Positions 6,322 to 26,439 of a stretch of 41,773 nt of DNA are shown here, one piece after another. The notes beneath the pieces are model-generated. The model was not told where the DNA came from. It saw nothing but the letters and a program-made list of their open reading frames with translations, and made no database searches. Source of the DNA: Actinomycetota bacterium (lineage in GTDB: Bacteria > Actinomycetota > AC-67); contig VAWS01000050.1 in assembly GCA_005884515.1 (NCBI GenBank), forward strand, positions 1-41,773. Direction: 5' to 3'. The first letter of the stretch is position 1. Each line of letters starts with the position of its first letter. The position numbers were made by a program, and so were the translations under genes.

Positions 6322-6347
6322 CTACCCCGCCGGCGCGGAAGGCAAAC
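6322..6347 (-). promoter_or_regulatory. SigB/SigF-type promoter candidate, GTTT-N16-GGGTAG, for the enolase-superfamily gene
   Basis: Minus strand reads GTTTgccttccgcgccggcgGGGTAG. The -10 box overlaps the TAG stop of the GH15 gene and ends 9 nt before ATG 6312, so the mRNA would be near-leaderless. Confidence 0.55.
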
Positions 6348-8130
6348 GGTTCTCTGAAAGCGCAACGGCAGCCGCGATGTGCGAGAGATGCGTCAGACCT
6401 TGCGGGAAGTTGCCACGCAGCTCACCCGCGTCGACGTCGAACTGCTCAGAGAAAAGGCCGAGGTCGTTCGCCGTCGCGACCGTATTGTCGAACCACACGC
6501 GCGCCCGCTCCTTGCGCCCCTGACGCGCGTAGACTTCCGCCAGCCAGAACGAGCACGGAAGGAACGCACCCTTCTCCTCGACGCCGTCGTCGTCGGCGTA
6601 CCGTCGCAGCAATCCCCCGACACCGAGCTCCTCGGCGATCGCGTCCGCCGTTCGCATCATCCGGTCGTCGTCGTACGCGCAGAAGTCGACAAAGGGAATC
6701 AGCAGCAACGAGGCGTCGAGCGCGCGCGACCCGAACTCGCGCACGAACACGCCGCGCTTGTCGTCGAAGCCGTCGCCCTCGACCGCTTCGCGGATCTCCT
6801 TACGCATCCGTTCCCAGCGATCCGTCGGCGCGCGGCGCGCGGACGCCTCGGCAAGCTTGAGCGCGCGATCGACGGCCGCCCAGCACATCACTTTCGAGTG
6901 CACGAAGTGTCTCGGTTCGCCGCGGACCTCCCAGATCCCCCGATCGGGCTCGGTCCAGCGCTCGCACGCGGTGTCGACCATCTCGACGATGAACTCCCAA
7001 TAGTCGTCGTCGGGCGAACGGCCGCGCTCGTACCAGCGCCATGCGAGGTCCATGGCTTCCCCGTACACGTCGAGCTGCTCCTGCCGCCACGCGTCGTTGC
7101 CGATCCGAACCGGCGCACAGCCGCGGTAGCCCTCCAGGTCCTCGAGCTCGATCTCGGTCAGGCGACGCTCGCCGCCGATCCCGTACACAACCTGGATGTC
7201 CGTACCGGTGCCGGCCGCGCTTCGTTCGACGAACCGCCGGAAACCTTCGGGCTCCTTCTCGTACCCGAGCTCGAAGAGCGCGCGCACCGTGAAGGTCGAG
7301 TCGCGGACCCAGCTATAGCGGTAGTCCCAGTTCGCATCGCCGGGGATGAGCGCCGGAAGCGACGTGGTCGGCGCCGCTGCGATCGCACCGGTCGGCGCGA
7401 ACGTCAGCGCTTTCAGCACCGCCGCCGACCGGATCGTGCCGGCCACGTACGGCCCGTCGAACTGCGCCTCGCGCGCCCACTGCTCCCACCACGTGAGCGT
7501 CTCGTCCAGCCGGCTGTCGAGCTCGTGCTGTTCCGGCGCCACCGCAGCCTGGTCGTCCAAGAGCTCCGGTTCGACGTAACGGATCGACAGGCGCACACGC
7601 TCGCCGGCGCGCACGACGATCCGCGCGGCAAGGTTGTGCCGGTCCACGCGCTCCATCGGGAAATCGCTCGCGAAGAGCAGCCCTTGCGCGCCGCCGATCG
7701 CGCTGTAGAGCTGCGCGCCCTCTCGCCGGAACCACGGGTTCACTTCGCCGTAGTCGAAACGAGGGGACGCGTGCAGATCGAGCTCGACGCGGCCGCGCAC
7801 GCCTTCGACGATCCGGATCAGCTGTCGGTACGGGCGGTCGCGCCCACCCCGGCGCATCGCGAAGAAGTCGTAAAGGCGCGCTTCGCCGCCGCCCGCGCGG
7901 AACGTCGTCTCGAGCACGAGCGAGTCGTTCACATACCGGCGCGACGTCTCGGCCCCGTCGGCCCCGATCGAACAGAACCCGCCGCGTTCGCGGTCGAGCA
8001 GGCGTCCGAAGACGCTCGGCGAGTCCAGACGTGGCGTGCAGCACCAGTCGATGGACCCGTCGCGCGAGACCAGCGCCGACGAGTGGCAGTCGCCGATCAG
8101 CGCGTAGTCGCCGATCGGTGGGTAGCTCAT
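6322..8130 (-). CDS. Glycoside hydrolase family 15 (glucoamylase/trehalase-like)
   Basis: 602 aa. The N-terminus IGDYALIGDCHSSALVSRDGSIDWCCTPRLDSPSVFGRLLD is the conserved GH15 N-domain signature. ATGA overlap with the upstream SDR stop. Confidence 0.9.
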   Translation of the reverse strand: MSYPPIGDYALIGDCHSSALVSRDGSIDWCCTPRLDSPSVFGRLLDRERGGFCSIGADGAETSRRYVNDSLVLETTFRAGGGEARLYDFFAMRRGGRDRPYRQLIRIVEGVRGRVELDLHASPRFDYGEVNPWFRREGAQLYSAIGGAQGLLFASDFPMERVDRHNLAARIVVRAGERVRLSIRYVEPELLDDQAAVAPEQHELDSRLDETLTWWEQWAREAQFDGPYVAGTIRSAAVLKALTFAPTGAIAAAPTTSLPALIPGDANWDYRYSWVRDSTFTVRALFELGYEKEPEGFRRFVERSAAGTGTDIQVVYGIGGERRLTEIELEDLEGYRGCAPVRIGNDAWRQEQLDVYGEAMDLAWRWYERGRSPDDDYWEFIVEMVDTACERWTEPDRGIWEVRGEPRHFVHSKVMCWAAVDRALKLAEASARRAPTDRWERMRKEIREAVEGDGFDDKRGVFVREFGSRALDASLLLIPFVDFCAYDDDRMMRTADAIAEELGVGGLLRRYADDDGVEEKGAFLPCSFWLAEVYARQGRKERARVWFDNTVATANDLGLFSEQFDVDAGELRGNFPQGLTHLSHIAAAVALSENRLPSAPAG

Positions 8131-9122
8131 CGCGCCGCGCGCCGTCGCAATGCCAGCCCGACGGCCGCGCCCAGCGCGGTCACGCCGAAGAGGCGCTTCT
8201 TCGTGCTCAAGACGACCTCGGGACTGTGCGCGTGCGCGCGCGCATCGAAGTCGCCGTGCGCGCCGTGGTCGCCGGGAACAGGGCTGAACAGGTTGTTGGG
8301 TCGCGTCGGGTCCTCCGGTTCGTTGGTCTGTTGCGCCTTCACGCCGGTCAACGCCAGATACCGGTCGAGCAGCCCCGGAGCGACGTCGTTCGCCAGGATC
8401 GTCGCCGCAGTCGTCGCGCCGACCCAGCTCTCATGACGATGCGGATGGTCGGCGGCCCATGCGATCGCGCGCGCGGCGACCTCGGGCTGGTAGATCGGCG
8501 GCACCGGTTGCGCGCGGCGCGGCAGCCGCGACTTCACAACGGCGAACTGCGGCGTGTTCAGGGCCGGCAGCTGAACCATCGTGATATGCACGCCGCTCTG
8601 CTCGTGCAACAGCTCGCAGCGGACGGACTCGGTGAAGCCCTGGATCGCGTGCTTCGCGCCGCAGTACGCGGACTGAAGCGGGATCCCGCGGTACGCGAGC
8701 GCCGAGCCGACCTGCACGATCGCGCCGCGGTTGCGCGGCATCATGCGCGCCAGTGCGACCCGCGTCCCGTTCACGACGCCGTGATACGTCACATCGGTGA
8801 CGCGCTCGTACTCCTCCGGCGTGATCTGCCAGAAGGGCGCGAACACGCTCGTCATCGCGTTGTTGATCCACACGTCCATCCCGCCGAGCTCCGCCTCGAT
8901 CTGCGCCCCGGCTCGCTCGACCTGTTCCACGTCGGCAACGTCGGTCGGGATCGCAAGCGCGCGCCCACCGAGCTCCTCGACCTCTGCCGCCGTCGCTTTC
9001 AGGCCGTCTTCGCCCCGCGCCAGGACGCCGATGCGCCAGCCGCGCTCGGCGAAGACGCGCGCGGTCGCGCGCCCGACGCCCGACGTCGCCCCGGTGATGA
9101 CGACAACTTTCTGCGCTCTCAC
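8127..9122 (-). CDS. Short-chain dehydrogenase/reductase with C-terminal hydrophobic tail
   Basis: VVVITGATSGVGRA Rossmann motif and YCGAK catalytic motif. I prefer the GTG start at 9122 because a GGGAGG SD lies 4 nt upstream. The track start ATG 9164 falls inside the divergent promoter and its first codons are AT-rich at position 3. Confidence 0.85.
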   Translation of the reverse strand: MRAQKVVVITGATSGVGRATARVFAERGWRIGVLARGEDGLKATAAEVEELGGRALAIPTDVADVEQVERAGAQIEAELGGMDVWINNAMTSVFAPFWQITPEEYERVTDVTYHGVVNGTRVALARMMPRNRGAIVQVGSALAYRGIPLQSAYCGAKHAIQGFTESVRCELLHEQSGVHITMVQLPALNTPQFAVVKSRLPRRAQPVPPIYQPEVAARAIAWAADHPHRHESWVGATTAATILANDVAPGLLDRYLALTGVKAQQTNEPEDPTRPNNLFSPVPGDHGAHGDFDARAHAHSPEVVLSTKKRLFGVTALGAAVGLALRRRAAR

Positions 9123-9139
9123 GATGCCTCCCAGCGGCG

Positions 9140-9164
9140 GTTTCGCGACTGAAGTCACGGGCAT
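9140..9164 (+). promoter_or_regulatory. SigB/SigF-type promoter candidate, GTTT-N15-GGGCAT, for the 85-aa gene
   Basis: Plus strand reads GGTTTcgcgactgaagtcacGGGCAT. The -10 box ends 10 nt before ATG 9175, so the mRNA would be near-leaderless. Confidence 0.5.
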
Positions 9165-9174
9165 GCTTTTACGG

Positions 9175-9432
9175 ATGGAACATTCCCGTCACGAACCGCG
9201 CCCAACCAACCCCGACAAGCGCGGGCCGAGCGAGGATCCCGGCCACCCACAGCCGGAAGCGGCTGAGGTGGAGAGCGCACGGCTGCTCGCGAACGATGCA
9301 AAGGAAGCGCTGAAGCGCAAGGGGCTGAGCGAGCGCGAGATACGCCGCCTTGCCGACGAGTACATCGCGCTGGACAAAGGCGAAGGCGTTCCCGAGTTCA
9401 TCGCGTGGGCGCACCGGCACGCGCGCGCCTAG
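9175..9432 (+). CDS. Small charged hypothetical protein (85 aa)
   Basis: This is the tail of track ORF 8797..9432 (MEHSRHEPRPTNPDKRGPSED...LSEREIRRLADEYIALDKGEGVPEFIAWAHRHARA). Third codon positions are GC-rich. A promoter motif lies directly upstream. Confidence 0.6.
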   Translation: MEHSRHEPRPTNPDKRGPSEDPGHPQPEAAEVESARLLANDAKEALKRKGLSEREIRRLADEYIALDKGEGVPEFIAWAHRHARA

Positions 9433-12354
9433 CGCGACGCGCGTTTCTTCCGAGCAGCCCTGCCCGCCACCACCGCTGCGCCGGCCAGCGCTGCGCCGAT
9501 CGCGATGCGCGCGCGGCTTCGGTCACGCGTCCCGCCGTCTCGTTGCACATCGCTCTCCGGCGGCACCCGTGCAGGACCGCGGCCAGCCGCCATCGTGAGC
9601 ACCTGCGCGAGGTGCAGTCCGCGCCGGTGGGTCAGCTGTTCGATCTGCGTCTGACAGCTGAACCCGTCGGCCACCACGATCGTGTCGAGGCCCGCTTCTC
9701 GCACCGTGGGCAAGATGCCGTGCTCGCCTTCGCCGGCCTTGACCGACACCTCGTACCGCTCGCCGGCCTCGAAGCCGAACGACCCGGCGAGGCCGCAGCA
9801 CGTCGCCTGGACCTCCTGGACGTCGACCCCCATCTTCTTCAGCAGACCCGTGTCGGGATGCGTGCCCATCACCGAGCGGTGGTGGCAGTGACCGAAGTAC
9901 AGGGCGGTGCGCTTCAGCCGCGGCGGTGAGAAGGTGCGGTCGCTCAGGAACTCCGCGAGCGTGAACACCTGCTTGCTGAGCCGCTTCGCATCTTCGTCCA
10001 GCGGCAGTAGGTTCGGCAGCTCGTCGCGGAACACGGCGATGCAGCTCGGCTCCATGCCGACGATCGGCGTGCCGGCCGCGATCTCGTCCCGCAGCGCGCG
10101 CACGGTCTGGCGCAGCAGCCGCTTCGCAAGATCGAGCATGCCGTAGTCGTAGAGCGGACGGCCGCAGCAGAGGATCTTCGGCGGCAGCTCCACCCGGCAG
10201 CCGGCAGCTTCCAGCACCTCGACCGTGGCTCGCGCGACGTCGGTGTGGAAGAAGTTGTTGAACGTATCCGGCCACAGGATCACGCGGTCGCCGCCGGGGT
10301 TGCGCGCTTGATGCGTCTTGAACCACGCGCGGAAGGGCTGCTCGGCGAAGACGGGGGCATCGCGCTGCGGCGCGATACCGCCTGCTTTCTTCACCAGCGC
10401 GCTCACTCCGCGCGCGTGCGTGGCGAAGTTCGCGAGCCGTGGCGCGCGCGACGCGAGCCGAGACCACCAGTAGATCAGCCCGAGCGCGTACGCCTGCCGC
10501 GGCCTCATCCGGCCTTTGTAGTAGTGCGAGTAGAACTCTGCTTTGTACGTGGCCATGTCGACGTTGACCGGGCAGTCGCTCTTGCAGCCCTTGCACGCGA
10601 GACAGAGGTCGAGCGCCTCGTGCACCTCCTCCGAGCGCCAGCCGTCGGTGATGGTCTCGCCGCGCATCATCTCGAAGAGCAAGCGCGCGCGCCCACGCGT
10701 CGAGTGGATCTCTTCGCGCGTCGCCATGTAGCTCGGGCACATCGTCCCGCCCTCGTGACGCCTGCACTTGCCTACGCCGACGCACCGCAGCGACGCGTGC
10801 GCGAAGTCCCCCTTGTCCTCCGGGTACGCGAAGTGTGTCTTCACTTCGAGCGGCCGCCACTCAGGGCCCAGCCGAAGGTTCGACGTGATCGGGTACGGGT
10901 CGACGACCTTGCCCGGGTTCATCTTCCCGTCCGGATCCCAGATCGACTTGAACTCGCGGAACGCTTCGATCAGTTGCGGTCCGTACATCTTCGGCAGCAG
11001 CTCCGCGCGCTGCTGCCCATCGCCGTGCTCGCCGGAGAGGGAACCGCCGTACCCGATGACCAGATCGGCCGCGTCGTCGAGGAACGAGCGCCACTTCTCG
11101 ACGCCGGGCGCCGTGTAGAGGTCGAACGTGATGCGGCAGTGCAGGCACCCCTGACCGAAGTGGCCGTACAGCGCGCACTGGTAGCCGTACTCGTCCGTGA
11201 GCTTCCGGAAGTCGCGGAGGTAGTCGGCGAACTTGTCCGGCGGCACCGCCGAATCCTCCCAGCCCTCCCACGCGTCGGGTTTGTTCGGGATGAACGCCGT
11301 CGCGCCCAGGCCGCTCTCGCGCACCTTCCAGATGTGGGCCTCGTCCTTCGGATCGTTGAGCAGCCTGATGTCGGTCAGCGCCGTGTTCTTGCGCAGGTCA
11401 CGCATCACCTCGCGCGCGCGCGCGTCGGCTTCCTCTTTCGTCGCGCCGCCGAGCTCGATCATCAGCCAGCCGCGCCCGTCGGGCAGGTACGCAATGTCCT
11501 CGACGTTCATGCCTTTGGCGCGCGCGTCGTTGATCAGCTCTTCGTCCAGGCCTTCCAACGCAAGCGGTCCGTGCTGGACGATCGCCGGAACGTCGTCGGC
11601 CGCGGCGAAGATATCCTCGAACCCGGCCACCAGCAGCGATCGATGAGCGGGCCAGTCGACGAGCCGCATCGTCGCGCCGAGCACCGTAACGAGAGTGCTC
11701 TCGCTGCCGACCAGCGCGCGCGCGACGTTGAACCCGTTCTCCGGCAGCAGCTGGTCGAGGTTATAGCCGGAAACTCGCCGTGGGATCTGCGGGTAGCGCG
11801 CGCGGATCTCGTCTGCATACCTGTCGCGCAAGTCTCGGAGACGTCGATAGATCTCGCCGGCGCGGCCGCCTCTCTCGATGTGGTCAGATACGTCTTGGTC
11901 GGACGTCGGTCCCACGCGCATCCTGGTTCCGTCATAAAGCAAGGCGTCGAGCTCTTCGGTGTTTTCCGCGGTCTTGCCGCTCATCAGCGAGTGCGCGCTC
12001 GACGCGCGCGCGCTTGTCGTTCGGGAACAGCTCGAAGTGCTGCAGGTACTTCGAGCAGTCCATCACGACGGCGACGTTGCAGCTCTGGCCGGCGAGGCTG
12101 GTGCCGCCGCCGCGGCTCAGCACCGGGTAGCCGTGCGCGCGGCACGCCGCCACCGTCGCGACGACGTCGTCGACCGAACGCGGGACGACGACGCAGATCG
12201 GCACCTGCCGGTAGTTGGAGGCGTCCGTTGAGTAGGCGGCCCGGGAGCCGAGGTCGAACCGCACCTCGCCCGACACGGCCGCGCGCAGCGCGGCCTCGAG
12301 CGATGCCGCGTCGACCTCTCGCCCGCGCGCGACCGAGCGCGGCGCTCGTGTCAT
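9429..12354 (-). pseudogene. FAD-binding (GlcD-like) plus Fe-S/CCG-domain (GlcF-like) oxidoreductase, disrupted by an internal out-of-frame deletion
   Basis: Track ORFs 11932..12354 and 9429..11984 are the two halves. The first carries the N-terminal FAD domain (VLSRGGGTSLAGQ). The second carries the rest (CLACKGCKSDCP 4Fe-4S motif, CCGRP and CCGLAGSFG CCG motifs). About 40 residues between ...RARVE and AHSLMSGKT are missing relative to the family, and the frames differ by 1 nt. Confidence 0.75.
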
Positions 12355-12364: not shown

Positions 12365-14149
12365 TCATCGGTGCAGGAACTCCTCGATCTTGCCTTTGAA
12401 CCCCTGCCTTATCACCTCGCGGGCATCGGGATCCCCGGCCATGATCGACTTCATCAGCTTCTTCGCCTGGTTCCATTCGATGTGCGGCGGCAGCGGTGGA
12501 ACGTTGGGGTCGACGACGGCTTCGAGCAACACCGGCCGGTCCGACGCGAACGCGTCGTCCCAGGCCGGCCCGACGGCATCGGGCGAGTCGACGCGGATCC
12601 CCTTGAATCCCAGCATGCGCGCGTAGCCCGCGTAGTCGAAGTCAGGAATCGTCTGCGACGCTTCGAACTTCGGGTCGCCTTCCATCGCCCGCTGCTCCCA
12701 CGTCACCTGGTTCAGATCGCGGTTGTTGAGCACCAGGAAGATCAGGCGCGGGTCGCGCCACTCCTTCCAATAGCGGGCAACCGTCAGCATCTCGTTCATC
12801 CCGTTCATCTGGAACGCACCGTCGCCGACGAGCGCGATCGGCACGCGCTCCGGGTACGCGAACTTTGCCGCGATGACGTACGGCACGCCGGGACCCATCG
12901 TCGCGAGCGTCCCGGACAGCGAGCACATCATCCCGCGGCGGATCTTGATGTCGCGCGCGAACCAATTGGCCGCCGAGCCCGAGTCCGCCGCGAGTATCGC
13001 GTTGTCGGGCAGGCGCTTCGACAGTTCCCAGAACACGCGCTGCGGGTTTACCGGGTCGGCATCGTTCATCGCGCGAGCGTGGACGATCTCCCACCACCGC
13101 GTCACCTCTTCGGTGATCTTCTGCTGCCAGCTGCGGTCTTCCTTCCGCCTCAGCATCGGGAGGAGCGCGCGCAACGTCTCCGCGCTGTCACCCACAAGCA
13201 TGCAGTCCATCGGGTACCGGATGCCGATCATCGTCCCGTCGAGGTCGACCTGCACCGCGCGGGCCTGGCCCCACTCCGGCATGAACTGGCTGTACGGGAA
13301 GCTGGACCCCACCATGAGCAGCGTGTCGCAGTCCATCATCATGTCGTAGCTGGGTTTCGTTCCGAGCAGCCCGATCGAACCCGTGACGAACGGCACGTCG
13401 TCGGGTACCGCATCTTTCCCGAGCAGCGCCTTGGCGATGCCGGCGCCGAGCACATCGGCGACCTCCAGCACCTCGTCGGTGGCGTGCTTGGCGCCTTGCC
13501 CGACGAGCATCGCGACTTTCTTCCCTTCGTTCAGGATGTCCGCCGCCGCAAGCAGGTCGTGCTCGGTCGGAAGCACGCGCGGCTCGTTGTACCCCACGGT
13601 TCCCGGAACCATCTTGAACTTGTGCGGCGGCTCCTCTTCCGCCGGCATCTCCTGAATGTCGGTCGGGATGATCACGCACGTGACGGTTCGCATCGCGCGC
13701 GCGATGCGCATCGCGCGATCGATGAGATTCGGGAACTGCTGCGGCGAGGCGGCCATCTGCACGTACTCGTGCGCGACGTCTTTGAACAAGCTGACGAGGT
13801 CGACCTCTTGTTGGTAGTTCCCGCCGAGGGCGCTCGTCGGCTGCTGGCCCACGATCGCGACCACAGGCTGATGGTCGAGCTTCGCATCGTAGAGACCGTT
13901 CAGAAGGTGAATCGCGCCGGGCCCCGACGTCGCCAGGCACACGCCCACCTCGCCGGTCCACTTCGCGTGACCGGTCGCCATGAACGCCGCCATCTCTTCG
14001 TGGCGGACCTGGATGAACCGCGGATCGTTGTTCGCGCGCTCGAGCGCGCCGAGGATGCCGTTGATGCCGTCGCCCGGGTAACCGAAGATCCGGCGAACCC
14101 CCCACTCCCGGAGGCGGTCGACGATCAGATCGCTGACGGACATGCCCAT
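12365..14149 (-). CDS. Thiamine-diphosphate enzyme, pyruvate oxidase / pyruvate:quinone oxidoreductase (PoxB/Pqo)-like
   Basis: Contains IFGYPGDGINGILGAL, ATSGPGAIHLLNGLYDA and the GDGAFQMNGMNE TPP-binding motif. Start taken at ATG 14149 (MGMSVSD), 6 nt after an AAGGAGGAGG SD. Confidence 0.9.
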   Translation of the reverse strand: MGMSVSDLIVDRLREWGVRRIFGYPGDGINGILGALERANNDPRFIQVRHEEMAAFMATGHAKWTGEVGVCLATSGPGAIHLLNGLYDAKLDHQPVVAIVGQQPTSALGGNYQQEVDLVSLFKDVAHEYVQMAASPQQFPNLIDRAMRIARAMRTVTCVIIPTDIQEMPAEEEPPHKFKMVPGTVGYNEPRVLPTEHDLLAAADILNEGKKVAMLVGQGAKHATDEVLEVADVLGAGIAKALLGKDAVPDDVPFVTGSIGLLGTKPSYDMMMDCDTLLMVGSSFPYSQFMPEWGQARAVQVDLDGTMIGIRYPMDCMLVGDSAETLRALLPMLRRKEDRSWQQKITEEVTRWWEIVHARAMNDADPVNPQRVFWELSKRLPDNAILAADSGSAANWFARDIKIRRGMMCSLSGTLATMGPGVPYVIAAKFAYPERVPIALVGDGAFQMNGMNEMLTVARYWKEWRDPRLIFLVLNNRDLNQVTWEQRAMEGDPKFEASQTIPDFDYAGYARMLGFKGIRVDSPDAVGPAWDDAFASDRPVLLEAVVDPNVPPLPPHIEWNQAKKLMKSIMAGDPDAREVIRQGFKGKIEEFLHR

Positions 14150-14192: not shown

Positions 14193-14218
14193 ATGCCCAC
14201 GGCTAGAAAGCGCGAAAC
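14193..14218 (-). promoter_or_regulatory. SigB/SigF-type promoter candidate, GTTT-N16-GGGCAT, for the PoxB-like gene
   Basis: Minus strand reads GTTTcgcgctttctagccgtGGGCAT, 43 nt upstream of ATG 14149. Confidence 0.5.
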
Positions 14219-18116: not shown

Positions 18117-19886
18117 TTACTGTTCGATCTTGAACTTCCGCTTACGGAGCACCGTGCCACCGCCGAGCGCCGCGAGCAGCATCAGGATGCCTGCCCAGGT
18201 GTACGCGCTGTCCGCAACGCCGGTCTTCGGCAGGATGGCCTTGACGAACGTCTCGGGCTCGGTGAGGGTGCCGGTGCCGGTGACGGGGACCTTGGCGTTG
18301 GTGATGCCCGTCACGGTCGTCTCGCCGCTGCCCGGAGCCGGCTTGCAGTTGGACACTGCACCTGCCGCCGTCGCGATGTCCTTGATCTTGCCGCCACCGC
18401 CGCCGGTCTTCAGCGTGACCGTGAAGGTCGCGTGACCACCGGGCGGGATGGTCGGCAGGCCCTTGTCCCACACGACCTTCGCCGTCGTGAGTCCGTCTGC
18501 CGTCGGCAGGTTCGGGCTGCTCGGGTCCGGCGTGGCCGAGGTGACCTGGAAGGTCGCGGTGCCTTCGATCGTGTCGATCTGGTCCGTCACGTTGCTCAGA
18601 ACCAGCGGGCACGACCAGGGGTTGTCGACCTGGATCGTCGTGGTGAACGACTTGCCGCTCTCAACCGTCGTCACGTCCGGCGTCTTCGTGACCGGGATCG
18701 GGCAGTTGATGCCGCCGGCCGGAACTGCCGCAGCCGCTTCGAGGTGACCGACGCTGAGGTCGAGGACGTGCCCCGGGATCTCAGGGATGTTCAGGAGCTT
18801 GAGCTCCACCACGTTGACCGATCCGGACGCTGCCGTTCCGGCCGCGTTCACGTTGCCCTTGATGTTCGGGCCCGTCGAGGACATCAGTTGCTCGAGAGTC
18901 GCGATCTTCAGCTGCAGGAGCAGATCCGTGCCGGCGTCGCCGGCCCCCGGCGGGATCTGGATGTCGATCCCGTTCGGGCCGGTTACCTGGTCGGGAAGGA
19001 TGTGGATCGGAGCCTGCCCGGGAGGCGTGATCGTGACCAACGGCGCGATGTAGTCGATGTTGTCCTTCTTGTTCGCGTGATGGGTCCCGTCAACCTTGAC
19101 CACCAGGAGTGCGGGTGCGACGTCAACTTGGATGTCGTTTCCGGTGCCCTTCAACAGCACGAGGTGCACGGCGTGCGTCATCGCAACGCTCGCAAGACCG
19201 AGGCCTGGACCGGCGCCCGGGTACAGCTGCGTAAACGACGCCGACTCGACGACACCCGCGTGCACGAGTGCTTGCTTGAACGAGTCGTCAGCGTTCGTTC
19301 CCATCCCCGAGTCGATGTTGATCGCATCGGCTGCAGCGAGGCGAGAGAAGCCCGACGAGATCGGCTCGCCAATCACGCAGGTGTTGGTGTTCCAGTTCGC
19401 AGCCGCGGTCGTGTGGAATCCGTCTACCCACAAGAGCGGGCTGCCCGGGACGTGCAGCGGGTCTTTGTCGTCAACCTTGGGACCGTTGGCGGTCGCGGCC
19501 TGCGACACCAGCGGTGCGATCTGGTTCGGATCGTCCTTGGTGACACCGAGACCAACCTCGGCGACAGATCCCTGACCGTACGACTTGTCCGCCGTGAATC
19601 CCTTGGGGAGGATCGGACGGTTGAACTCGTTGTACAGCGCTGTGGGAAGTCCTTCCGACGAAACGACTGCGTTCGACTGGCCGACTTCCACATTCGCCAC
19701 CTTGGTGCCCATCAGTTCGAGGGCATCAACATGCGCGACTTCACCACTCGCGAAACCGCCGTATGGGCCGCCCGTTGCGGCCGCGCTGACCGGAACCGCG
19801 AACGCGGTTACGACCACGCCGGTCATGAGTGCGATCAGAGACGCAGAGAACTTCCGTGCGGCGCGTCCCCCGCTAACTTTCAACAT
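18117..19886 (-). CDS. Sortase-anchored (LPXTG) cell-wall surface protein
   Basis: Has an N-terminal signal peptide. The C-terminal sorting signal is LPKTG, then a hydrophobic helix (AYTWAGILMLLAALGGGTVL), then the RKRKFK tail. Start taken at ATG 19886, which has an AGGGGG SD 6 nt upstream. Confidence 0.88.
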   Translation of the reverse strand: MLKVSGGRAARKFSASLIALMTGVVVTAFAVPVSAAATGGPYGGFASGEVAHVDALELMGTKVANVEVGQSNAVVSSEGLPTALYNEFNRPILPKGFTADKSYGQGSVAEVGLGVTKDDPNQIAPLVSQAATANGPKVDDKDPLHVPGSPLLWVDGFHTTAAANWNTNTCVIGEPISSGFSRLAAADAINIDSGMGTNADDSFKQALVHAGVVESASFTQLYPGAGPGLGLASVAMTHAVHLVLLKGTGNDIQVDVAPALLVVKVDGTHHANKKDNIDYIAPLVTITPPGQAPIHILPDQVTGPNGIDIQIPPGAGDAGTDLLLQLKIATLEQLMSSTGPNIKGNVNAAGTAASGSVNVVELKLLNIPEIPGHVLDLSVGHLEAAAAVPAGGINCPIPVTKTPDVTTVESGKSFTTTIQVDNPWSCPLVLSNVTDQIDTIEGTATFQVTSATPDPSSPNLPTADGLTTAKVVWDKGLPTIPPGGHATFTVTLKTGGGGGKIKDIATAAGAVSNCKPAPGSGETTVTGITNAKVPVTGTGTLTEPETFVKAILPKTGVADSAYTWAGILMLLAALGGGTVLRKRKFKIEQ

Positions 19887-20275
19887 GAGCAACCCCCTAG
19901 GTTGTCCAGCGTTACATCACTAGTCTTTCGCCACGGAGAGAGCAAAGCCCTGTCTCAGGTACCCGTTCCTTCGGTGACAAACCGGCAAGGTGGTCGTACC
20001 TGTCTCTCCGCCTACCTCAACGACTCCCGAACTCCGAAAGTCACGTGACAATGGCACGTTTGGGCTAGTCATTTCAACCCCTACCTTCCATGACCTAGGA
20101 AATCGGAAATGGACTCGCTCGTTCCAAAAAGCTCATTTCTCCTGGTGAGAGGCCGTCCGGCGCACACTTTGGAAAATTGGACAAAAAGGGCGCATTTGAC
20201 CACGGAGCGTGATAATCCAGTGGTCCGGTAATCTGTAACAGTTCGCTCGCCAGCAACAACGGGAACAACTGTGGC

Positions 20276-22339
20276 ATGGGTCGGATCACGCGGAGTGCCA
20301 GGCGAGGGGCATTTGCGATTCTTTTGTCGCTGGCGTCGGCGTGTTCCCTGACGCGCTTCGCGCCGCCGACGGCGACCCCCCTTCAGCTCCGCTCGACGAT
20401 CGTTGCGGCCGACGGGACGCCGCTCGCAACCCTGTTCGCTCAGAACCGCACGGCCGTTCCGGCGCACGCGATCCCGAGCGTGGTCAAGGCCGCGACGATC
20501 GCTGCGGAAGACGCGCGCTTCCTCAGCCACGCCGGCATCGACTTGAAGGGCATCGCGCGCGCATTCGTCGCGAATCTCGCAGCCGGTCGCGTCGTGCAAG
20601 GAGGGAGCACGATCACCGAACAGCTTGCGAAGCTGATGTACGGACCGAACGCACCGCGGACGCTCGGCGAGAAACTTCGCGAAGCACGTCTGGCCGCGTG
20701 GCTCGAGAACCGCTACTCGAAGGACGAGATCCTGTCGATGTACTTGAACCGCGCGTACTTCGGTCACGGTGCCTACGGGATCCAAGCGGCGGTCGAGACG
20801 TACTTCGACGTTCCGCTGCGCGCGATAGATTCGTCACGCGCAGCACTTCTGGCCGGACTTCTGCGCGCCCCGGCGGCGCTCGATCCTTTCCGAGACCCAT
20901 CGGGCGCACTCGCGCGACGCAACGAGGTCCTCGCGCGTATGCGCGATGCCGGAACGATCAGCGCCGCGGAGGCCGCGCGCGCTTCATCAGCGCCGCTTTC
21001 GTTGCGCACGCGCCCGTTGCCGACGAACGCGCACGCTCCCTACTTCGTCGAGTACGTCGAAGACCAAGTGCTGTCCGATCCCGCTTTCGGCGCGACCGAG
21101 CAAGAACGACAGGATGCGCTGTACCGAGGCGGGCTCACCATCCGAACGACACTCGATCCCCGTCTGCAGAACGCAGCCGATCAAGCCGTTTCCGGCGTGC
21201 TCGGACGCGTCGGCGATCCGGATGTCGCGTTGATCGCGATCGATCCGCACACGGGTGCCGTGCGGGCGATGATCGGCGGAAAGGACTTCGCGCGCGCGCC
21301 GTTCAACCTCGCGGTGCAGGCGAGGCGCCAACCGGGGAGCGCCTTCAAGCCGTTCGCGCTTGCGGCGGCGATCGAAGACGGCATCTCGCCCGACAAGACG
21401 TACCAGTCGTCGGAAACGACCTTGCATTTCGATGCGTACTCGAGCTGGCGCGTTCGCAACTACGACGGCGCCAGCGGGGGCATGATGTCTCTTCGCACCG
21501 CGACGGAACGCTCGGTCAATGCCGTGTACGCGCGCTTGGTCATGGACATCGGCCCGGGCGCAGTCGCCGGTATGGCGCAGCGCGCCGGCATCACGTCACC
21601 GCTCGAGACGTTCCCATCGATCGCGCTCGGCGCGCTCCGGACGGGTGTATCGCCGCTCGAGATGGCCTCGGCATACGGGACGTTCGCGAACGACGGCGTG
21701 CACATGCCGCCGCACGGGATCGCGCTCGCGAAGGACGCGTCGGGCAACGTCTTGTCCGACGAGGGCGCGCTGCGCGGGACGCCGGCGATGGATGCGGGCA
21801 TCGCCTACGAGGTCACGAGCGTCCTCCAGGACGTGGCGAGGTACGGAACCGGCGCCAACGCCCGGATCGGACGGCCGATGGCCGACAAGACGGGAACGAC
21901 CGACCGACACCGCGACGCATGGCTCGTCGGATACACGCCCGACCTCGTGACGGCGGTGTGGGTCGGCTACCGCATCCCGCGGCCGATGACGAACGTCTAC
22001 GGGATCAGCGTCGTCGGCGCGTCGTTCCCGTCGACGATCTGGCGACGCTTCATGTCGCGCGCGGAGGCGGGCAAGAAGGTGCGCGACTTCGACGTTCCGG
22101 CCGCGCTCATGCACGTGCGCGTCGCGGGTAACGGAACGTGCATCGCCGCGCCCGATCAGCCCGGAATGGACGAATCGCTCCCTGTGTCCCTTGTTCCATC
22201 GTCGCCGTGCCCGCGCCCGACTCCGCCGGCTCCGTCGCCGTCGCCGAGCCCCGCCGTCCCTTCTCCCTCGCCGTCAGCAACTGCGTCTGCGTCGCCGAAG
22301 CCCTCTCCGTCTCCAAAGCCTTCGGTTTCTCCGCGCTGA
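20276..22339 (+). CDS. Class A penicillin-binding protein (GT51 transglycosylase plus transpeptidase)
   Basis: Glycosyltransferase motifs are AAEDARFLSHAGID and GGSTITEQLAK. Transpeptidase motifs are SAFKPF (SxxK), SVN and KTGTT. The C-terminal tail is Pro/Ser-rich. Confidence 0.92.
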   Translation: MGRITRSARRGAFAILLSLASACSLTRFAPPTATPLQLRSTIVAADGTPLATLFAQNRTAVPAHAIPSVVKAATIAAEDARFLSHAGIDLKGIARAFVANLAAGRVVQGGSTITEQLAKLMYGPNAPRTLGEKLREARLAAWLENRYSKDEILSMYLNRAYFGHGAYGIQAAVETYFDVPLRAIDSSRAALLAGLLRAPAALDPFRDPSGALARRNEVLARMRDAGTISAAEAARASSAPLSLRTRPLPTNAHAPYFVEYVEDQVLSDPAFGATEQERQDALYRGGLTIRTTLDPRLQNAADQAVSGVLGRVGDPDVALIAIDPHTGAVRAMIGGKDFARAPFNLAVQARRQPGSAFKPFALAAAIEDGISPDKTYQSSETTLHFDAYSSWRVRNYDGASGGMMSLRTATERSVNAVYARLVMDIGPGAVAGMAQRAGITSPLETFPSIALGALRTGVSPLEMASAYGTFANDGVHMPPHGIALAKDASGNVLSDEGALRGTPAMDAGIAYEVTSVLQDVARYGTGANARIGRPMADKTGTTDRHRDAWLVGYTPDLVTAVWVGYRIPRPMTNVYGISVVGASFPSTIWRRFMSRAEAGKKVRDFDVPAALMHVRVAGNGTCIAAPDQPGMDESLPVSLVPSSPCPRPTPPAPSPSPSPAVPSPSPSATASASPKPSPSPKPSVSPR

Positions 22340-22350
22340 CACAAGGGAAC
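22325..22350 (+). promoter_or_regulatory. SigB/SigF-type promoter candidate, GTTT-N16-GGGAAC, for membrane protein gene 22380
   Basis: Plus strand reads GGTTTctccgcgctgacacaaGGGAAC. It straddles the PBP stop codon (22337..22339), with the -35 box in the last PBP codons and the -10 box just downstream. It lies 29 nt upstream of ATG 22380. Confidence 0.45.
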
Positions 22351-22379: not shown

Positions 22380-22856
22380 ATGGCTCTCGAACACGAGCAC
22401 ATCCACGAGGTGCACGAGTCCGTCGTTTCTGAAGAGCCGGCCGCAGTGCGCGAGCCGTTCGGCATCGCACAGTTCTTCTCGCTGGCGATCGGCATCTTCC
22501 TGATCGTCATCGGCGCGATCGGACTGGCACGCGCAGGACTCCACCACATCGATTCTCCGACCGTGTCGGTCGGTCCCTTCACGATGACGCCGTTGCTCGC
22601 GGCCGTGAAGCTGTTCCTCGGTCTGGTCGGCTTGATCGGCGCTGCCGGTCGAGCAGCCGCGCGCGGCGTGTGCATGTTCATCGGGCCGGCGCTGCTTGCC
22701 GGCGGGATCGTTGCGCTGATCCAGAGCGTCAGGGTCCTCGGCTGGAACCGAGCGGACGCTGTTATCTACATCATCTTGGGCAGCGCGTCGATACTCGCCG
22801 CGCTGGTGACGCCGATGTTGACGTCGTACTCGGAACGCCGCGTTACCGCGGTGTAA
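22380..22856 (+). CDS. Four-helix membrane protein with His-rich N-terminus
   Basis: Tail of track ORF 22191..22856, from MALEHEHIHEVHE. A GGAAGGAGGG SD lies 8 nt upstream. Confidence 0.8.
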   Translation: MALEHEHIHEVHESVVSEEPAAVREPFGIAQFFSLAIGIFLIVIGAIGLARAGLHHIDSPTVSVGPFTMTPLLAAVKLFLGLVGLIGAAGRAAARGVCMFIGPALLAGGIVALIQSVRVLGWNRADAVIYIILGSASILAALVTPMLTSYSERRVTAV

Positions 22857-23007: not shown

Positions 23008-23033
23008 CTACCCACGTCTGCGGCCGGGCAAAC
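23008..23033 (-). promoter_or_regulatory. SigB/SigF-type promoter candidate, GTTT-N16-GGGTAG, for the 39-aa gene
   Basis: Minus strand reads GTTTgcccggccgcagacgtGGGTAG. Confidence 0.55.
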
Positions 23034-23035
23034 GG

Positions 23036-23295: not shown

Positions 23296-23321
23296 ATTCC
23301 CCCCCGCGAGCGCCGACAAAC
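23296..23321 (-). promoter_or_regulatory. SigB/SigF-type promoter candidate, GTTT-N16-GGGAAT, for the 50-aa gene
   Basis: Minus strand reads GTTTgtcggcgctcgcggggGGGAAT, 54 nt upstream of ATG 23241. Confidence 0.5.
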
Positions 23322-23343: not shown

Positions 23344-23381
23344 GTGAAAGGAACGAGCCGGCGCTCGGAAGCGCCGGCTCG
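23344..23381 (-). terminator. Intrinsic terminator after the Rho_N-domain gene
   Basis: An 11-12 bp stem, CGAGCCGGCGC (23354..23364) with GCGCCGGCTCG (23371..23381). On the minus strand TTCCTTTCAC follows. Confidence 0.55.
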
Positions 23382-23398
23382 GACGGGGTCCTGTTGCG

Positions 23399-23743: not shown

Positions 23744-23781
23744 GTGACAACACCTCCACATATTTCGTGGTCTTTTCAATC

Positions 23782-23806
23782 ATTCCCCGCCGCGTTTTCC
23801 GTAAAC
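23782..23806 (-). promoter_or_regulatory. SigB/SigF-type promoter candidate, GTTT-N15-GGGAAT, for the Rho_N-domain gene
   Basis: Minus strand reads GTTTacggaaaacgcggcgGGGAAT, 38 nt upstream of ATG 23743. Confidence 0.5.
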
Positions 23807-23823
23807 GGCTCGCGAAAACAGGC

Positions 23824-23849
23824 GTTTGGCACGCACAGGCAATGGGCAT
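23824..23849 (+). promoter_or_regulatory. SigB/SigF-type promoter candidate, GTTT-N16-GGGCAT, for the His-tagged membrane mini-protein
   Basis: Plus strand reads GTTTggcacgcacaggcaatGGGCAT, 59 nt upstream of ATG 23909. It sits back-to-back with the 23782..23806 element. Confidence 0.5.
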
Positions 23850-23908
23850 TAGCAGCGACAGGACGTGCACCACCGGTGCATCGCGAGAGACGATGAAGGA
23901 GGGTAGAG

Positions 23909-24190: not shown

Positions 24191-24206
24191 CCCAAAGAAG
24201 AACGTG

Positions 24207-24236
24207 CGACGCGCGCCGGGAGACCGGCGCGCGTCG
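24207..24236. terminator. Bidirectional terminator hairpin between convergent genes
   Basis: A 13-bp perfect stem, CGACGCGCGCCGG with CCGGCGCGCGTCG, and a GAGA loop. The minus-strand side has T-rich flanks (GTTCTTCTTTGGG). Confidence 0.6.
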
Positions 24237-24251
24237 GCTTGTATGGCCCTG

Positions 24252-24743
24252 CTAGTCGAACGACGGCATCGCGTCGGTCCCGGCCGACATCTGTCCGGCC
24301 GGAACGACGAAACGCACCGTGGTGCCCCGTTCTTCGTTGCGCACGATCTCAGCGCCCGGGAACAGTGAGCTGATAAGCGTGAGCCCGAGCGATCCTTCGT
24401 ACAACCCGGCCGCCGGCGTCACGGCGCCGTCCGAGACCGCCTTCTGCAGCTCGGTGTCGATCCCTCCGCCGGCGTCGACGACCTCGAACTGCAGATCGCC
24501 GTCCACGAGGCGCGCGAGCAGCTCGATCGGCTCCAACGTTTCCGTATCGCGATGCGCTTTGACGGAGTTCGTGCACGCTTCCGACACAGCGACCTTGACG
24601 TCCTCGACGACGTCCTCGTCACATCCGAAGTGGCGGGCGACCGAGCCGGCGAACATGCGCGCCATCGCGATGTAGTCCGCTTCCGGAGGGATGCTCAGGC
24701 GAAGCTGCTCGGTCGCTCTGTCTTGGTCAGTTCGCGTTGCCAA
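24252..24743 (-). CDS. RsbW/SpoIIAB-type anti-sigma factor serine kinase (HATPase_c)
   Basis: 163 aa with a TTG start 6 nt after a GGGAAGGA SD. The N-box (SEACTNSVKAH), G1 (VVDAGGGI) and G2 (GSLGLTLI) motifs are all present. Confidence 0.85.
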   Translation of the reverse strand: MATRTDQDRATEQLRLSIPPEADYIAMARMFAGSVARHFGCDEDVVEDVKVAVSEACTNSVKAHRDTETLEPIELLARLVDGDLQFEVVDAGGGIDTELQKAVSDGAVTPAAGLYEGSLGLTLISSLFPGAEIVRNEERGTTVRFVVPAGQMSAGTDAMPSFD

Positions 24744-24767
24744 TCGACGTCCTTCCCGCGGAGGGCC

Positions 24768-25115
24768 TCAGCCCGCCGCGACCGCCTGCTCGACCGATTC
24801 GTGGATCGGGAAGACGTTGTTCAGTCCCGTGATCGAAAGCACGCGCAGGACCGGCCTGCTCGAGCAGACCAACGACAGAACGCCCTCGTGCTCCTTGACC
24901 CGCTTGAGCCCGCCGACGAGCGTCCCCAAGCCGGTGCTGTCCATGAAGGACACGCCCTGCAGGTTCACGATGATCTTGTAGCGGCCTTGGTCCACGGTCT
25001 CCACAAGCCGCTCGCGCAACTTCGGAGCCGTGAACATGTCGACCTCTCCTTGGACGTCGACGACCGTCCACGGGCCTTCCTGACGCGACTCAACGACGAA
25101 GTCGATCGCCGCCAC
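24768..25115 (-). CDS. STAS-domain anti-sigma-factor antagonist (RsbV/SpoIIAA-like)
   Basis: 115 aa. GEVDMFTAPKLRERL, and the conserved phosphorylatable serine context FMDSTGLGTLVG. The start (GTG 25115) is uncertain by a few codons. Confidence 0.88.
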   Translation of the reverse strand: MAAIDFVVESRQEGPWTVVDVQGEVDMFTAPKLRERLVETVDQGRYKIIVNLQGVSFMDSTGLGTLVGGLKRVKEHEGVLSLVCSSRPVLRVLSITGLNNVFPIHESVEQAVAAG

Positions 25116-25142
25116 CCCCTCTGTAGAATCGGCCTGGCTAGA

Positions 25143-25169
25143 TTACCCAGCGCATGTTCCCACCAAACC
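25143..25169 (-). promoter_or_regulatory. SigB/SigF-type promoter candidate, GGTTT-N16-GGGTAA, for the STAS/kinase operon
   Basis: Minus strand reads GGTTTggtgggaacatgcgctGGGTAA, 27 nt upstream of GTG 25115. Confidence 0.6.
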
Positions 25170-25191
25170 GTCATGCTACCCATGTCCAGCG

Positions 25192-25219
25192 GGTTTCCAC
25201 TTCCAAGCCCTGGGGGTAA
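25192..25219 (+). promoter_or_regulatory. SigB/SigF-type promoter candidate, GGTTT-N17-GGGTAA, for the anti-sigma/sigma operon (autoregulation)
   Basis: Plus strand reads GGTTTccacttccaagccctggGGGTAA, 30 nt upstream of GTG 25250. Confidence 0.6.
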
Positions 25220-25249
25220 GACTCTTCCACCTGAGCCCAAGGAGCCCAT

Positions 25250-25636
25250 GTGAGCGAGATACGCCTTTCCGTTCCGGCGCGCGCCGACTACGTCCACGTG
25301 CTCCGGTCGGTTATCGCCAGTGTGGCGGCCAAGCTCGACTTCTCCTACGACGACATCGAGGACCTGCGGCTGGCCGTCGATGAAGCGTGCGCCTACTTGT
25401 TGGGTCTGCGCGACGGTCCGACCTCGTTGACGCTGACTATCACGCCGAGCAGCAGTGCCGTCGATGTGCTCGCGTCGGTCGACGGCGCCGAGGCCACGGA
25501 GCGAGCCCAGGGCCTGCAAGCCAACATGGTGTGGCATCTGCTCGGCGCCCTGACCGACGAGGCGCGCTTCGACGAGTCGGCCGGGCATCCGGGGATCCGT
25601 TTCACGAAGCGCGCGCCCGCGGGCGCCGGGCGCTGA
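25250..25636 (+). CDS. Anti-sigma factor of the RsbW/UsfX type with degenerate ATP-binding motifs
   Basis: 128 aa with a GTG start after an AAGGAG SD. The layout is anti-sigma-like (DYVHVLRSVIASVAAKLDFSYDDIEDLRLAVDEA). It has no N-box Asn (DEACAYLL) and no DxGxG or GxG boxes. It lies immediately upstream of the sigma gene. Confidence 0.7.
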   Translation: MSEIRLSVPARADYVHVLRSVIASVAAKLDFSYDDIEDLRLAVDEACAYLLGLRDGPTSLTLTITPSSSAVDVLASVDGAEATERAQGLQANMVWHLLGALTDEARFDESAGHPGIRFTKRAPAGAGR

Positions 25637-25648
25637 CGGCCTTTCGCT

Positions 25649-26398
25649 ATGGCGGAAACCGACAACGAGCTCCAAGAAGAGCGAGCAGCCGAGCTGTTCG
25701 CCGCGTTGCCGGACGACGCCGCGCGCGAAGAGCTCGTGCGGATGTTCTTCCCGCTCGTCGAGTACCTGTCGCGGCGCTTCCGGAGCCGCGGCGAGCCGCT
25801 CGACGACTTGGTTCAGGTCGCAAGCATCGGCTTGCTCAAGGCGATCGACCGGTTCGAGACAGACCGCGGCGTGAAATTCTCGACCTACGCCGTGCCGACG
25901 ATCATCGGCGAGCTGAAACGCCACTTCCGCGATACCGGGTGGGCGATGCGCGTGCCACGTCGGTTGCAGGAGCGCGCGCTGCTGCTTCGGTCGGTGATCG
26001 CCGACTCCTACCAGGAGCTGGGCCGCTCCCCGACGGTCGCCGAGATCGGACAGCGCGCCGGTCTGTCCGAGGAAGAAGTCCTCGAGGCGATGGACACCAT
26101 GCACGCGCACTCGGTCGAGTCCCTGGACGCGCCGATCGACGACGACGACAACAGCTCGATGACCACGCTGGGGACGGAGGATCAGCTGATCGAGCAGCTC
26201 GAGGGATGGGCCGACGTCGCGCCTCTGCTGCGCACGCTGCCGGAGCGGGAACGGCTTCTCCTTTATTACCGCTTTGTCGCCGGCATGCCCCAGAGCCAGA
26301 TCGCCCAGAAGCTCGGGATCTCGCAGATGCACGTCTCCCGACTGCTCTCACGGACACTCCAGACGCTGCGGACCGCGGTCAGCGGCGTCGATGGGTGA
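25649..26398 (+). CDS. Group 3 sigma-70 factor of the SigB/SigF/SigG subfamily
   Basis: 249 aa. Region 2 is DLVQVASIGLLKAIDRFETDRGVKFSTYAVPTIIGELKRHFRD. Region 3 is present. The region 4 HTH is QSQIAQKLGISQMHVSRL. Confidence 0.9.
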   Translation: MAETDNELQEERAAELFAALPDDAAREELVRMFFPLVEYLSRRFRSRGEPLDDLVQVASIGLLKAIDRFETDRGVKFSTYAVPTIIGELKRHFRDTGWAMRVPRRLQERALLLRSVIADSYQELGRSPTVAEIGQRAGLSEEEVLEAMDTMHAHSVESLDAPIDDDDNSSMTTLGTEDQLIEQLEGWADVAPLLRTLPERERLLLYYRFVAGMPQSQIAQKLGISQMHVSRLLSRTLQTLRTAVSGVDG

Positions 26399-26413
26399 AT
26401 GTGCCGAGGGCAG

Positions 26414-26439
26414 GTTTCACCGGCGAACGGCTCGGGTAC
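26414..26439 (+). promoter_or_regulatory. SigB/SigF-type promoter candidate, GGTTT-N16-GGGTAC, directed at the S8 protease gene
   Basis: Plus strand reads GGTTTcaccggcgaacggctcGGGTAC. It begins 15 nt after the sigma gene stop and lies 222 nt upstream of ATG 26662. Confidence 0.55.

Follow-up and report, generated by a model that had tools for sequence, protein, structure and literature searches.

A 41,773-nt stretch of genome from an uncultured soil Actinomycetota bacterium (GTDB lineage AC-67; GenBank assembly GCA_005884515.1, contig VAWS01000050.1, positions 1 to 41,773, forward strand), hereafter the window, carries eleven oriented copies of the bipartite motif GTTT-N15-17-GGGNA, several of them directly beside a gene encoding a SigB/SigF/SigG-family sigma factor (Table 1). 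These eleven motifs, together with up to three near-matches, are very probably promoters for RNA polymerase carrying a group-3 SigB/SigF-type sigma factor, most likely the product of the gene at 25649-26398. Count, spacing and gene-relative position of the motif in the window, its retention in diverged relatives and the partner-switching genes encoded next to the sigma factor all bear on this reading.

Promoter-like motifs and their placement in the window

Both strands of the window were scanned for GTTT-N15-17-GGGNA, with 100 dinucleotide-preserving shuffles as the control. The scan returned 12 matches, corresponding to 11 distinct sites, one of which matches twice through a G-run at 23297/23298, against a shuffle background of 1.19 matches on average (standard deviation 1.07, maximum 5), and none of the 100 shuffles attained 12. 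A preliminary description, prepared by reading the DNA alone, had listed eleven oriented sites with spacers of 15-17 nt and a GGG(T/C/A)A box; all eleven were recovered with coordinates agreeing to within 1 nt (one flanking base had been counted), and the spacer lengths (16 nt in eight sites, 15 nt in two and 17 nt in one) and the variable -10 base (T in five sites, C in three and A in three) were as described. The shuffle statistics also bear out its claim that so many matches would not arise by chance, and GTTT is indeed as scarce as it had proposed for GC-rich DNA, with just 73 copies across both strands of the window (GC content 64-70%), 11 of which fall within the sites.

The spacing between the two half-sites is narrowly constrained. 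When the gap was varied from 5 to 40 nt, with overlapping G-run matches tallied separately, matches were obtained at 14 nt (n = 2), 15 nt (n = 3), 16 nt (n = 8) and 17 nt (n = 1), with none at 5-13 or 18-25 nt. A minor peak at 26-28 nt was considered as a possible second motif and rejected, as most of it arose from the same sites, paired with another GTTT further upstream or with a G-run further downstream; of its eight matches, two were located away from the 11 sites. Permuting or reversing the half-sites yielded between 0 and 6 matches in the window. A repeat search of the window found no direct or inverted repeat family overlapping any site, and the spacers and flanks of the 11 sites are unrelated to each other; therefore the sites are not copies of a mobile element, and an origin as a dispersed repeat was likewise rejected.

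Position relative to genes was assessed on a gene map guided by GC content at third codon positions, in which approximately 90% of the window is coding, and distances to the start codon chosen on the same strand were counted from where the -10 box ends. Positions 0-70 nt upstream of a same-strand start account for 3.2% of all strand positions, yet 10 of the 11 sites fall within this zone, at 10-60 nt from the start codon, an outcome with a chance of about 1e-14 by a binomial estimate; site 11 is located at 223 nt. The orientation of each copy toward a downstream start, as originally reported, thus holds. Most of the chosen starts have an AGGAGG-like Shine-Dalgarno sequence ahead of them. Sites 1 and 2 and the candidate before the penicillin-binding protein (PBP) gene all lie 10-11 nt from an ATG, and near-leaderless mRNAs are therefore predicted for these genes; the remaining promoters would produce leaders of approximately 20-55 nt containing Shine-Dalgarno sequences. 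At first sight the divergent SDR gene included site 2, but a GTG at 9122 with a GGGAGG Shine-Dalgarno sequence is a more plausible SDR start, which would make site 2 intergenic.

On our reading of the gene map, nearly all heads of transcription units between approximately 5.2 and 26.7 kb carry an exact or near-exact motif, the near-exact candidates having been obtained with a relaxed pattern (n = 3), and no motif was detected at unit heads in 0-5.2 kb or 26.7-41.8 kb of the window. Eight exact sites are packed into 4.1 kb (22.3-26.4 kb), and two back-to-back divergent pairs are present (23783-23848 and 25144-25218), with -35 boxes 17 and 24 nt apart, respectively. A second T-tract (GTTT, CTTT or TTTT) was observed roughly one turn of the helix (11-13 nt) ahead of the -35 GTTT at the sites beginning at 6323, 23009, 23297 and 23783, and may be UP-element-like; at 23009 the tract is the tail of a neighbouring terminator.

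Table 1. Motif sites, additional candidates, and associated genes and elements in the window. ORF, open reading frame; TPP, thiamine pyrophosphate; L-numbers denote homologous loci described in the text.
Feature	Coordinates	Strand	Motif or family evidence	Distance to start codon (nt)	Downstream gene and remarks
Site 1	6323-6347	-	GTTT-N16-GGGTA	10	ATG 6312; -10 box overlaps GH15 stop codon
Site 2	9140-9163	+	GTTT-N15-GGGCA	11	ATG 9175 of 85-aa ORF
Site 3	14194-14218	-	GTTT-N16-GGGCA	44	Intergenic; ATG 14149, AGGAGG Shine-Dalgarno
Site 4	22325-22349	+	GTTT-N16-GGGAA	30	ATG 22380; overlaps PBP1 3' end; kept in L002
Site 5	23009-23033	-	GTTT-N16-GGGTA	28	39-aa acidic ORF; weakest site
Site 6	23297-23321	-	GTTT-N16-GGGAA	55	50-aa two-helix membrane ORF; kept at L002 and L003 orthologues
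Site 7	23783-23806	-	GTTT-N15-GGGAA	39	114-aa Rho_N-domain protein; kept in L002 and L065
Site 8	23824-23848	+	GTTT-N16-GGGCA	60	93-aa His-run membrane protein; 17 nt from site 7, divergent
Site 9	25144-25168	-	GTTT-N16-GGGTA	28	STAS/RsbW2 operon; kept in L001-L004
Site 10	25193-25218	+	GTTT-N17-GGGTA	31	rsbW1-sigF operon; kept in L001-L004
Site 11	26414-26438	+	GTTT-N16-GGGTA	223	S8 ATG; 16 nt past sigF stop
Extra candidate	9183-9206	-	GTTG-N15-GGGAA		Before SDR-GH15 operon; divergent from site 2
Extra candidate	19960-19982	-	GTTT-N14-GGGTA	67	LPXTG surface-protein gene (18117-19892); intergenic
Extra candidate	20241-20265	+	GTTC-N16-GGGAA	10	ATG 20276 of class A PBP (PBP1)
Enolase-superfamily MR/MLE enzyme	5227-6312		Pfam/NCBIfam		Target of site 1
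TPP-dependent PoxB-like enzyme	12365-14149	-	Pfam/NCBIfam		Target of site 3
DUF4383 membrane protein	22380-22856	+	Pfam/NCBIfam		Target of site 4
Rho_N-domain protein, 114 aa	23399-23743	-	C-terminal Rho_N-like domain, weak		N-terminal region MPQRAWSEKRERQYEHIKGG...
RsbW2-like serine kinase, 163 aa	24252-24743	-	HATPase_c_2, 78 bits		N (EACTN), G1 (DAGGG) and G2 (GSLGL) boxes intact
STAS anti-sigma-factor antagonist, 115 aa	24768-25115	-	TIGR00377, 103 bits (cutoff 53)		DSTG
RsbW1-like anti-sigma factor, 128 aa	25250-25636	+	HATPase_c_2, N-terminal part only		N, G1 and G2 boxes all lost
SigB/SigF/SigG-family sigma factor, 249 aa	25649-26398	+	TIGR02980, 270.7 bits (cutoff 234.35)		
Hairpin element	26515-26570	+	14-bp GC-rich hairpin (26515-26546), small hairpin, T-run (26562-26566)		Terminator- or attenuator-like
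S8 protease	26662-28221	+	Pfam/NCBIfam		

The sigma factor, its partner-switching genes and their relatives

The sigma factor exceeds the TIGR02980 cutoff, in agreement with the SigB/SigF-subfamily assignment made in the preliminary description, and the other gene identities given there were matched by Pfam and NCBIfam. Among solved structures it is most closely related to 8x6g chain H and the SigF of 1l0o, and it shares its entire region 4.2 recognition helix (SQMHVSRL) with 8x6g chain H, consistent with the same -35 specificity. Upstream of the sigma gene, the RsbW1-like anti-sigma factor is without the ATP-binding boxes and is therefore predicted to be kinase-dead, and the STAS protein of the opposite operon carries its putative phospho-serine within a conserved DSTG motif (FMDSTGLG). 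The STAS-RsbW2 and rsbW1-sigF operons are divergent and the motif precedes both, therefore autoregulation is implied.

Comparison with related loci extended these observations beyond the window. Identity of the sigma factor to that of the window is 99% in L001 and 97% in L002, both contigs of soil metagenome-assembled genomes (MAGs), 65% in L003 and L004, and approximately 53% at most in cultured Nocardioides, Rhodococcus and Streptomyces. L002 has the exact motif at seven of the eight core sites (site 5 is lost), the back-to-back pair before the STAS and rsbW-sigF operons is kept in both L003 and L004, and L003 keeps the site before the orthologue of the 50-aa ORF as well. Both L003 and L004 retain the two boxes with the same variable -10 base and an unchanged spacer length, whereas the spacers themselves are no more alike than random sequence (20/80 identical). 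The same footprint, with boxes kept and spacer not, was found for the divergent pair at 23783/23824 in L002 and in the soil-metagenome locus L065, and the boxes of site 8 are invariant across L001, L002 and L065.

A motif upstream of rsbW-sigF was also present in Rhodococcus, Tomitella, Mycobacteriaceae and Amycolatopsis loci, and was not found in Nocardioides-like and most Streptomyces loci with the patterns used. Dense clusters flank sigF in five loci from Rhodococcus, Tomitella and a Mycobacteriaceae MAG (L014, L015, L016, L060 and L039), with 4-9 exact motifs per 5-9 kb against approximately 0.03-0.3 expected; in L014 (Rhodococcus gannanensis) nine sites occupy 8.7 kb, where approximately 0.2 would be expected. 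Therefore, sigF-proximal promoter clustering is widespread in Corynebacteriales; the retrieved loci of Streptomyces and Nocardioides showed no such clustering.

For the TPP-dependent enzyme downstream of site 3, an orthologue (60% identical) was detected in an Amycolatopsis locus (L056), approximately 1.4 kb from a SigB/F/G-family sigma gene, with GTGT-N15-GGGTA on the minus strand (L056 2660-2720) approximately 36 nt before its ATG; as support for the site 3 target this is suggestive only. A GTTT upstream of the same orthologue was discarded on account of its 21-nt spacing. In the window, site 3 probably heads an operon running on into the FAD-oxidase/Fe-S gene(s) as far as 9429. The FAD-linked oxidase/Fe-S (GlcD/CCG-type) gene (9429-12354, minus strand) appears split between frames, with FAD_binding_4 truncated in the ORF at 11932-12354 and the remainder located in an overlapping ORF (9429-11984) in a different frame; the split is a frameshift, arising through either a pseudogene or an assembly error.

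Rho_N-domain proteins, the sigF-S8 spacer and flanking genes

The 114-aa Rho_N-domain protein downstream of site 7 belongs to a family that is very common in soil metagenomes, with at least 447 confirmed relatives. At lenient thresholds, neither its N-terminal half nor the 85-, 93-, 50- and 39-aa proteins had a significant Pfam or NCBIfam match. We collected 80 soil-metagenome loci (L065-L144) encoding homologues at 69-96% identity, 73 of which had enough upstream sequence. The exact motif occurred on the sense strand no more than 130 nt upstream in 22 of these 73 loci (approximately 30%), against 0.26 in shuffles, and sigma, STAS or RsbW homologues were also encoded on several of the contigs. 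In nine of the 73 the exact motif was found upstream but on the other strand, a sign of divergently transcribed neighbours, and a back-to-back divergent promoter layout seems common upstream of Rho_N homologues. We flag this small-protein family as a recurrent SigF-type target worth functional study.

Site 11 and the sequence between sigF and the S8 protease gene are less simply interpreted. The assignment of site 11 to the protease in the preliminary description is doubtful, as a hairpin and T-run lie in between, a TAGCGT stands closer to the protease start and a close relative has lost the site by deletion. The spacer at 26495-26611 hardly varies between the window, L001 and L002, and its fold z-score is -3.0; its consensus fold showed no compensatory changes, with just two informative sequences, and the structure is unproven. 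TAGCGT (26606-26611), itself invariant and 50 nt upstream of the S8 ATG, could by the TANNNT rule be the protease gene's own housekeeping -10 box. A sigma-70 consensus scan of 22-27 kb gave no matches, this consensus being uninformative for actinobacteria. In the 99%-identical L001, a deletion of approximately 110 nt (L001 3380-3400 against window 26375-26490) has removed site 11 and replaced the last sigma residues, such that the stop codon falls directly before the conserved hairpin; L002 keeps the site.

Given the hairpin with its T-run and the L001 deletion, site 11 may therefore yield a short RNA or an attenuated leader and not simply drive the protease. Its target is uncertain, the product being potentially a short RNA, a leader or protease mRNA, and the conserved spacer may correspondingly terminate sigF transcription, act as an attenuator or form the 3' end of a short SigF-dependent RNA initiated at site 11. 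Rfam returned no family at the gathering threshold across the whole window, and one meaningless miRNA match (E = 0.85) in the sigF-S8 spacer; the small ORFs between site 11 and the protease were all of low quality (27-28 aa).

Taken together with the Rho_N family, this spacer raises the tentative and rather speculative possibility of a conserved dormancy/stress micro-protein island under a SigF-type sigma, with two undescribed elements. One would be the Rho_N proteins as a core-target family, with conserved promoters, in SigF-type regulons across soil actinobacteria (approximately 110 aa, combining an N-terminal domain that Pfam does not contain with a Rho_N/SAP-like C-terminal domain), acting perhaps as nucleic-acid-binding protectants. 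The other would be a SigF-dependent RNA of approximately 120 nt, starting after site 11 and ending at the hairpin and T-run (26515-26566).

Elsewhere in the window, the right third (30875-41533) holds a cluster resembling lipid/steroid side-chain degradation genes and is without a SigF-type motif. It encodes a ChsH2-type OB/zinc-ribbon-ACAD fusion, several thiolase-like proteins, acyl-CoA dehydrogenases, MaoC and SDRs. The left edge of the window cuts through another S8 subtilase gene (3-1484, minus strand), with no motif in the available sequence.

Competing explanations, the predicted switch and known systems

Several observations weigh against reading the sites as promoters of the adjacent sigma factor. 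The scan motif was derived from the sites themselves, so that the invariance of the boxes within the window is circular; the shuffles, the spacer scan and the cross-genome conservation are tests independent of that definition. Comparative support is lacking for sites 1-3, save for the Amycolatopsis GTGT-N15-GGGTA before the TPP-enzyme orthologue, and neither the enolase-family gene nor the 85-aa ORF had an orthologue among the fetched loci. At site 5, L002 has a deleted -35 box and a mutated -10 box, and the 39-aa ORF is doubtful and aligns poorly; the terminator hairpin of the 50-aa gene, beside this site, is perfectly conserved in L002, and either site 5 or the 39-aa ORF may be lineage-specific or non-functional. 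The terminator-like hairpin after site 11 and the loss of that site in L001 leave the protease assignment weak. The sigma factor scores below the cutoffs of the mycobacterial SigF models (NF005514, 245.7 against 372 bits; NF005644, 138 against 261) and of the Bacillus SigB equivalog (TIGR02941, 177.3 against 315 bits), so that it can be assigned to the SigB/F/G subfamily but not firmly called a SigF orthologue. No PP2C (SpoIIE/RsbU-type) domain was present in any window ORF scanned, and the phosphatase may, by analogy with M. smegmatis, be encoded elsewhere. Finally, several SigB/F/G paralogues that recognise each other's promoters can coexist in an actinobacterium (PMC8346170), and the adjacent sigma is perhaps not the sole reader of these boxes.

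Carried further, the last point would make the sites genuine SigB/SigF-type promoters read mainly by one or more paralogous SigB/F/G sigma factors encoded elsewhere in the genome. Nine SigB homologues of S. coelicolor cross-recognise GTTT/GGGNA-type boxes (PMC8346170), the window covers 42 kb of the genome, and Amycolatopsis has two such sigma loci in our set (L053 and L056). We nevertheless regard this as unlikely, since the motif precedes the adjacent sigma's own operon and that of its antagonist, a pair conserved together with the sigma in L001-L004, and clustering is densest immediately around the adjacent sigma gene, as it is for sigF of M. smegmatis. That the bipartite motif is instead the site of a transcription factor, whether repressor or activator, is highly improbable. 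Sequence alone cannot name the binding protein, and the two back-to-back pairs lie in short divergent regions, an arrangement that is often operator-like; the half-sites, however, are non-palindromic and strictly oriented to the downstream gene, the spacer fits -35/-10 geometry, three sites lie 10-11 nt from an ATG as expected of a leaderless -10 box, and the boxes equal experimentally defined SigF/SigB promoters. Chance, base composition or a dispersed repeat is a negligible explanation: the motif is short (eight specified bases) and was defined by eye, but it was attained in none of the 100 shuffles, matches at gaps of 14-17 nt only, places 10 of 11 sites in 3.2% of positions, gives few matches when its half-sites are permuted, keeps its boxes in diverged orthologous regions and belongs to no repeat family.

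If the adjacent sigma factor is the reader, sigma region 4.2 would bind GTTT as the -35 element and GGGNA would be the core of the -10 element, the 15-17-nt gap corresponding to the classical inter-hexamer spacing of 12-15 nt. The sigma factor would be sequestered in an inactive state by kinase-dead RsbW1 and set free when unphosphorylated STAS protein binds RsbW1, whilst RsbW2 would phosphorylate the STAS serine, inactivating the antagonist and resetting the switch. An unlinked PP2C phosphatase, outside the window, would reactivate the STAS protein upon stress. Freed sigma would then direct RNA polymerase to the GTTT/GGGNA promoters, including those of both regulatory operons, generating positive autoregulation and negative feedback, and would turn on a contiguous island of approximately 21 kb (5.2-26.7 kb). 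Predicted targets in this island comprise hydrophilic and membrane proteins of small size (DUF4383, the 50-aa and 93-aa membrane proteins, the Rho_N-domain protein and the 85-aa protein) and enzymes (TPP-dependent pyruvate-oxidase-like and enolase-superfamily), and the SDR-GH15 operon, the class A PBP and the LPXTG protein may also belong to the regulon. By analogy with mycobacteria, stationary phase and oxidative or respiratory stress are likely triggers, and desiccation may be a further one in a soil organism.

The sites had initially been described as an apparent local regulon. A SigB/SigF-type promoter cluster is upheld by our analysis, but its local character is not and reflects the limits of the window; judging from M. 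smegmatis, this is probably a sigF-proximal hot spot of a genome-wide regulon. The analysis allows confident annotation of regulation in a soil actinobacterial lineage that is uncultured and lacks genetics, and predicts which genes, mostly for unannotated small proteins, answer a SigF-type stress/stationary-phase switch.

The box sequences and spacing equal published SigB/SigF consensus sequences, as had been noted from the outset (PMC4694148, PMC7693655, PMC8346170). In S. coelicolor, whose nine SigB homologues cross-recognise promoters, GGG and a fifth-position A are almost invariant (PMC8346170). The window resembles this network in its high-GC promoters, near-invariant GGG and fifth-position A, and GTTT-type -35 element, and differs in that the S. 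coelicolor -35 is often degenerate (GNNT) and read by nine paralogues, whereas here GTTT is strict in 11 of 11 sites and the window shows only one such sigma. The B. subtilis SigB consensus, GTTTAA-N12-14-GGG(A/T)A(A/T) (PMC8346170), coincides with the window motif once the gap is measured from GTTT to GGG, and the two systems share a STAS antagonist with a phosphorylatable serine and, as predicted for the window, an operon autoregulated from a SigB-type promoter and many small stress proteins in the regulon. In B. subtilis, however, a single RsbW is both anti-sigma factor and kinase and rsbV-rsbW-sigB-rsbX form one operon, whereas the window splits these roles between two paralogues in divergent operons.

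Mycobacteria offer extensive parallels. SigF promoters of M. smegmatis have been described as GTTT-N14-19-GGGTA with frequent GGGAA and GGGCA variants, many of them 8-11 nt from the start codon (PMC4694148); the mycobacterial consensus is alternatively given as GGWWT-N16-17-GGGTAY (PMC7693655), and start-site mapping has placed GGGTA -10 motifs at 56 hypoxia-induced starts (PMC6448022). The window motif, GTTT-N15-17-GGG[T/A/C]A, is alike in M. smegmatis and M. tuberculosis in its sequence, its variants and its short distances to start codons. Beside M. smegmatis sigF, MSMEG_1766-1804 forms a dense block of SigF-dependent units in which the chaB-rsbW-sigF operon is accompanied by genes for an RsbW homologue and for small hypothetical proteins (PMC4694148), comparable to the dense sigF-side cluster of the window with its many small hypothetical proteins, RsbW homologue and SigF-type promoter upstream of rsbW-sigF. 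The sigF-adjacent RsbW1 of M. smegmatis is a kinase-negative anti-sigma factor, and a separate rsfB-rsbW2 operon encodes a STAS antagonist and its only kinase (PMC7693655), an arrangement (RsbW1/UsfX, RsfA/RsfB, RsbW2) mirrored by the kinase-dead anti-sigma factor beside sigF and the separate STAS-plus-kinase operon of the window.

The window differs from mycobacteria in its host, an uncultured soil Actinomycetota bacterium, and in its targets, which are mostly uncharacterized small proteins. Its sigma factor is approximately 47-53% identical to Corynebacteriales and Streptomyces homologues, its STAS-RsbW2 operon is directly divergent from rsbW1-sigF rather than at a distant locus as in M. smegmatis, and its autoregulatory promoter lies 31 nt from rsbW1, compared to more than 1 kb upstream of sigF, before chaB, in that species. 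For site 11 and its hairpin, F6/SfdS of M. tuberculosis, a short non-coding transcript from a typical SigF promoter (PMC8557902), is a precedent for a SigF-dependent short RNA; the window element is known from sequence alone and has no Rfam match, and sequence similarity between the two is not expected. Overall, the promoter class, regulatory architecture and genomic pattern of the window are all previously known, and understanding of how SigF-type regulons work is unchanged. Ultimately, the comparison indicates that the sigF-side promoter hot spot and the split between a kinase-dead RsbW1 and an RsfB-RsbW2 pair extend well beyond Corynebacteriales.

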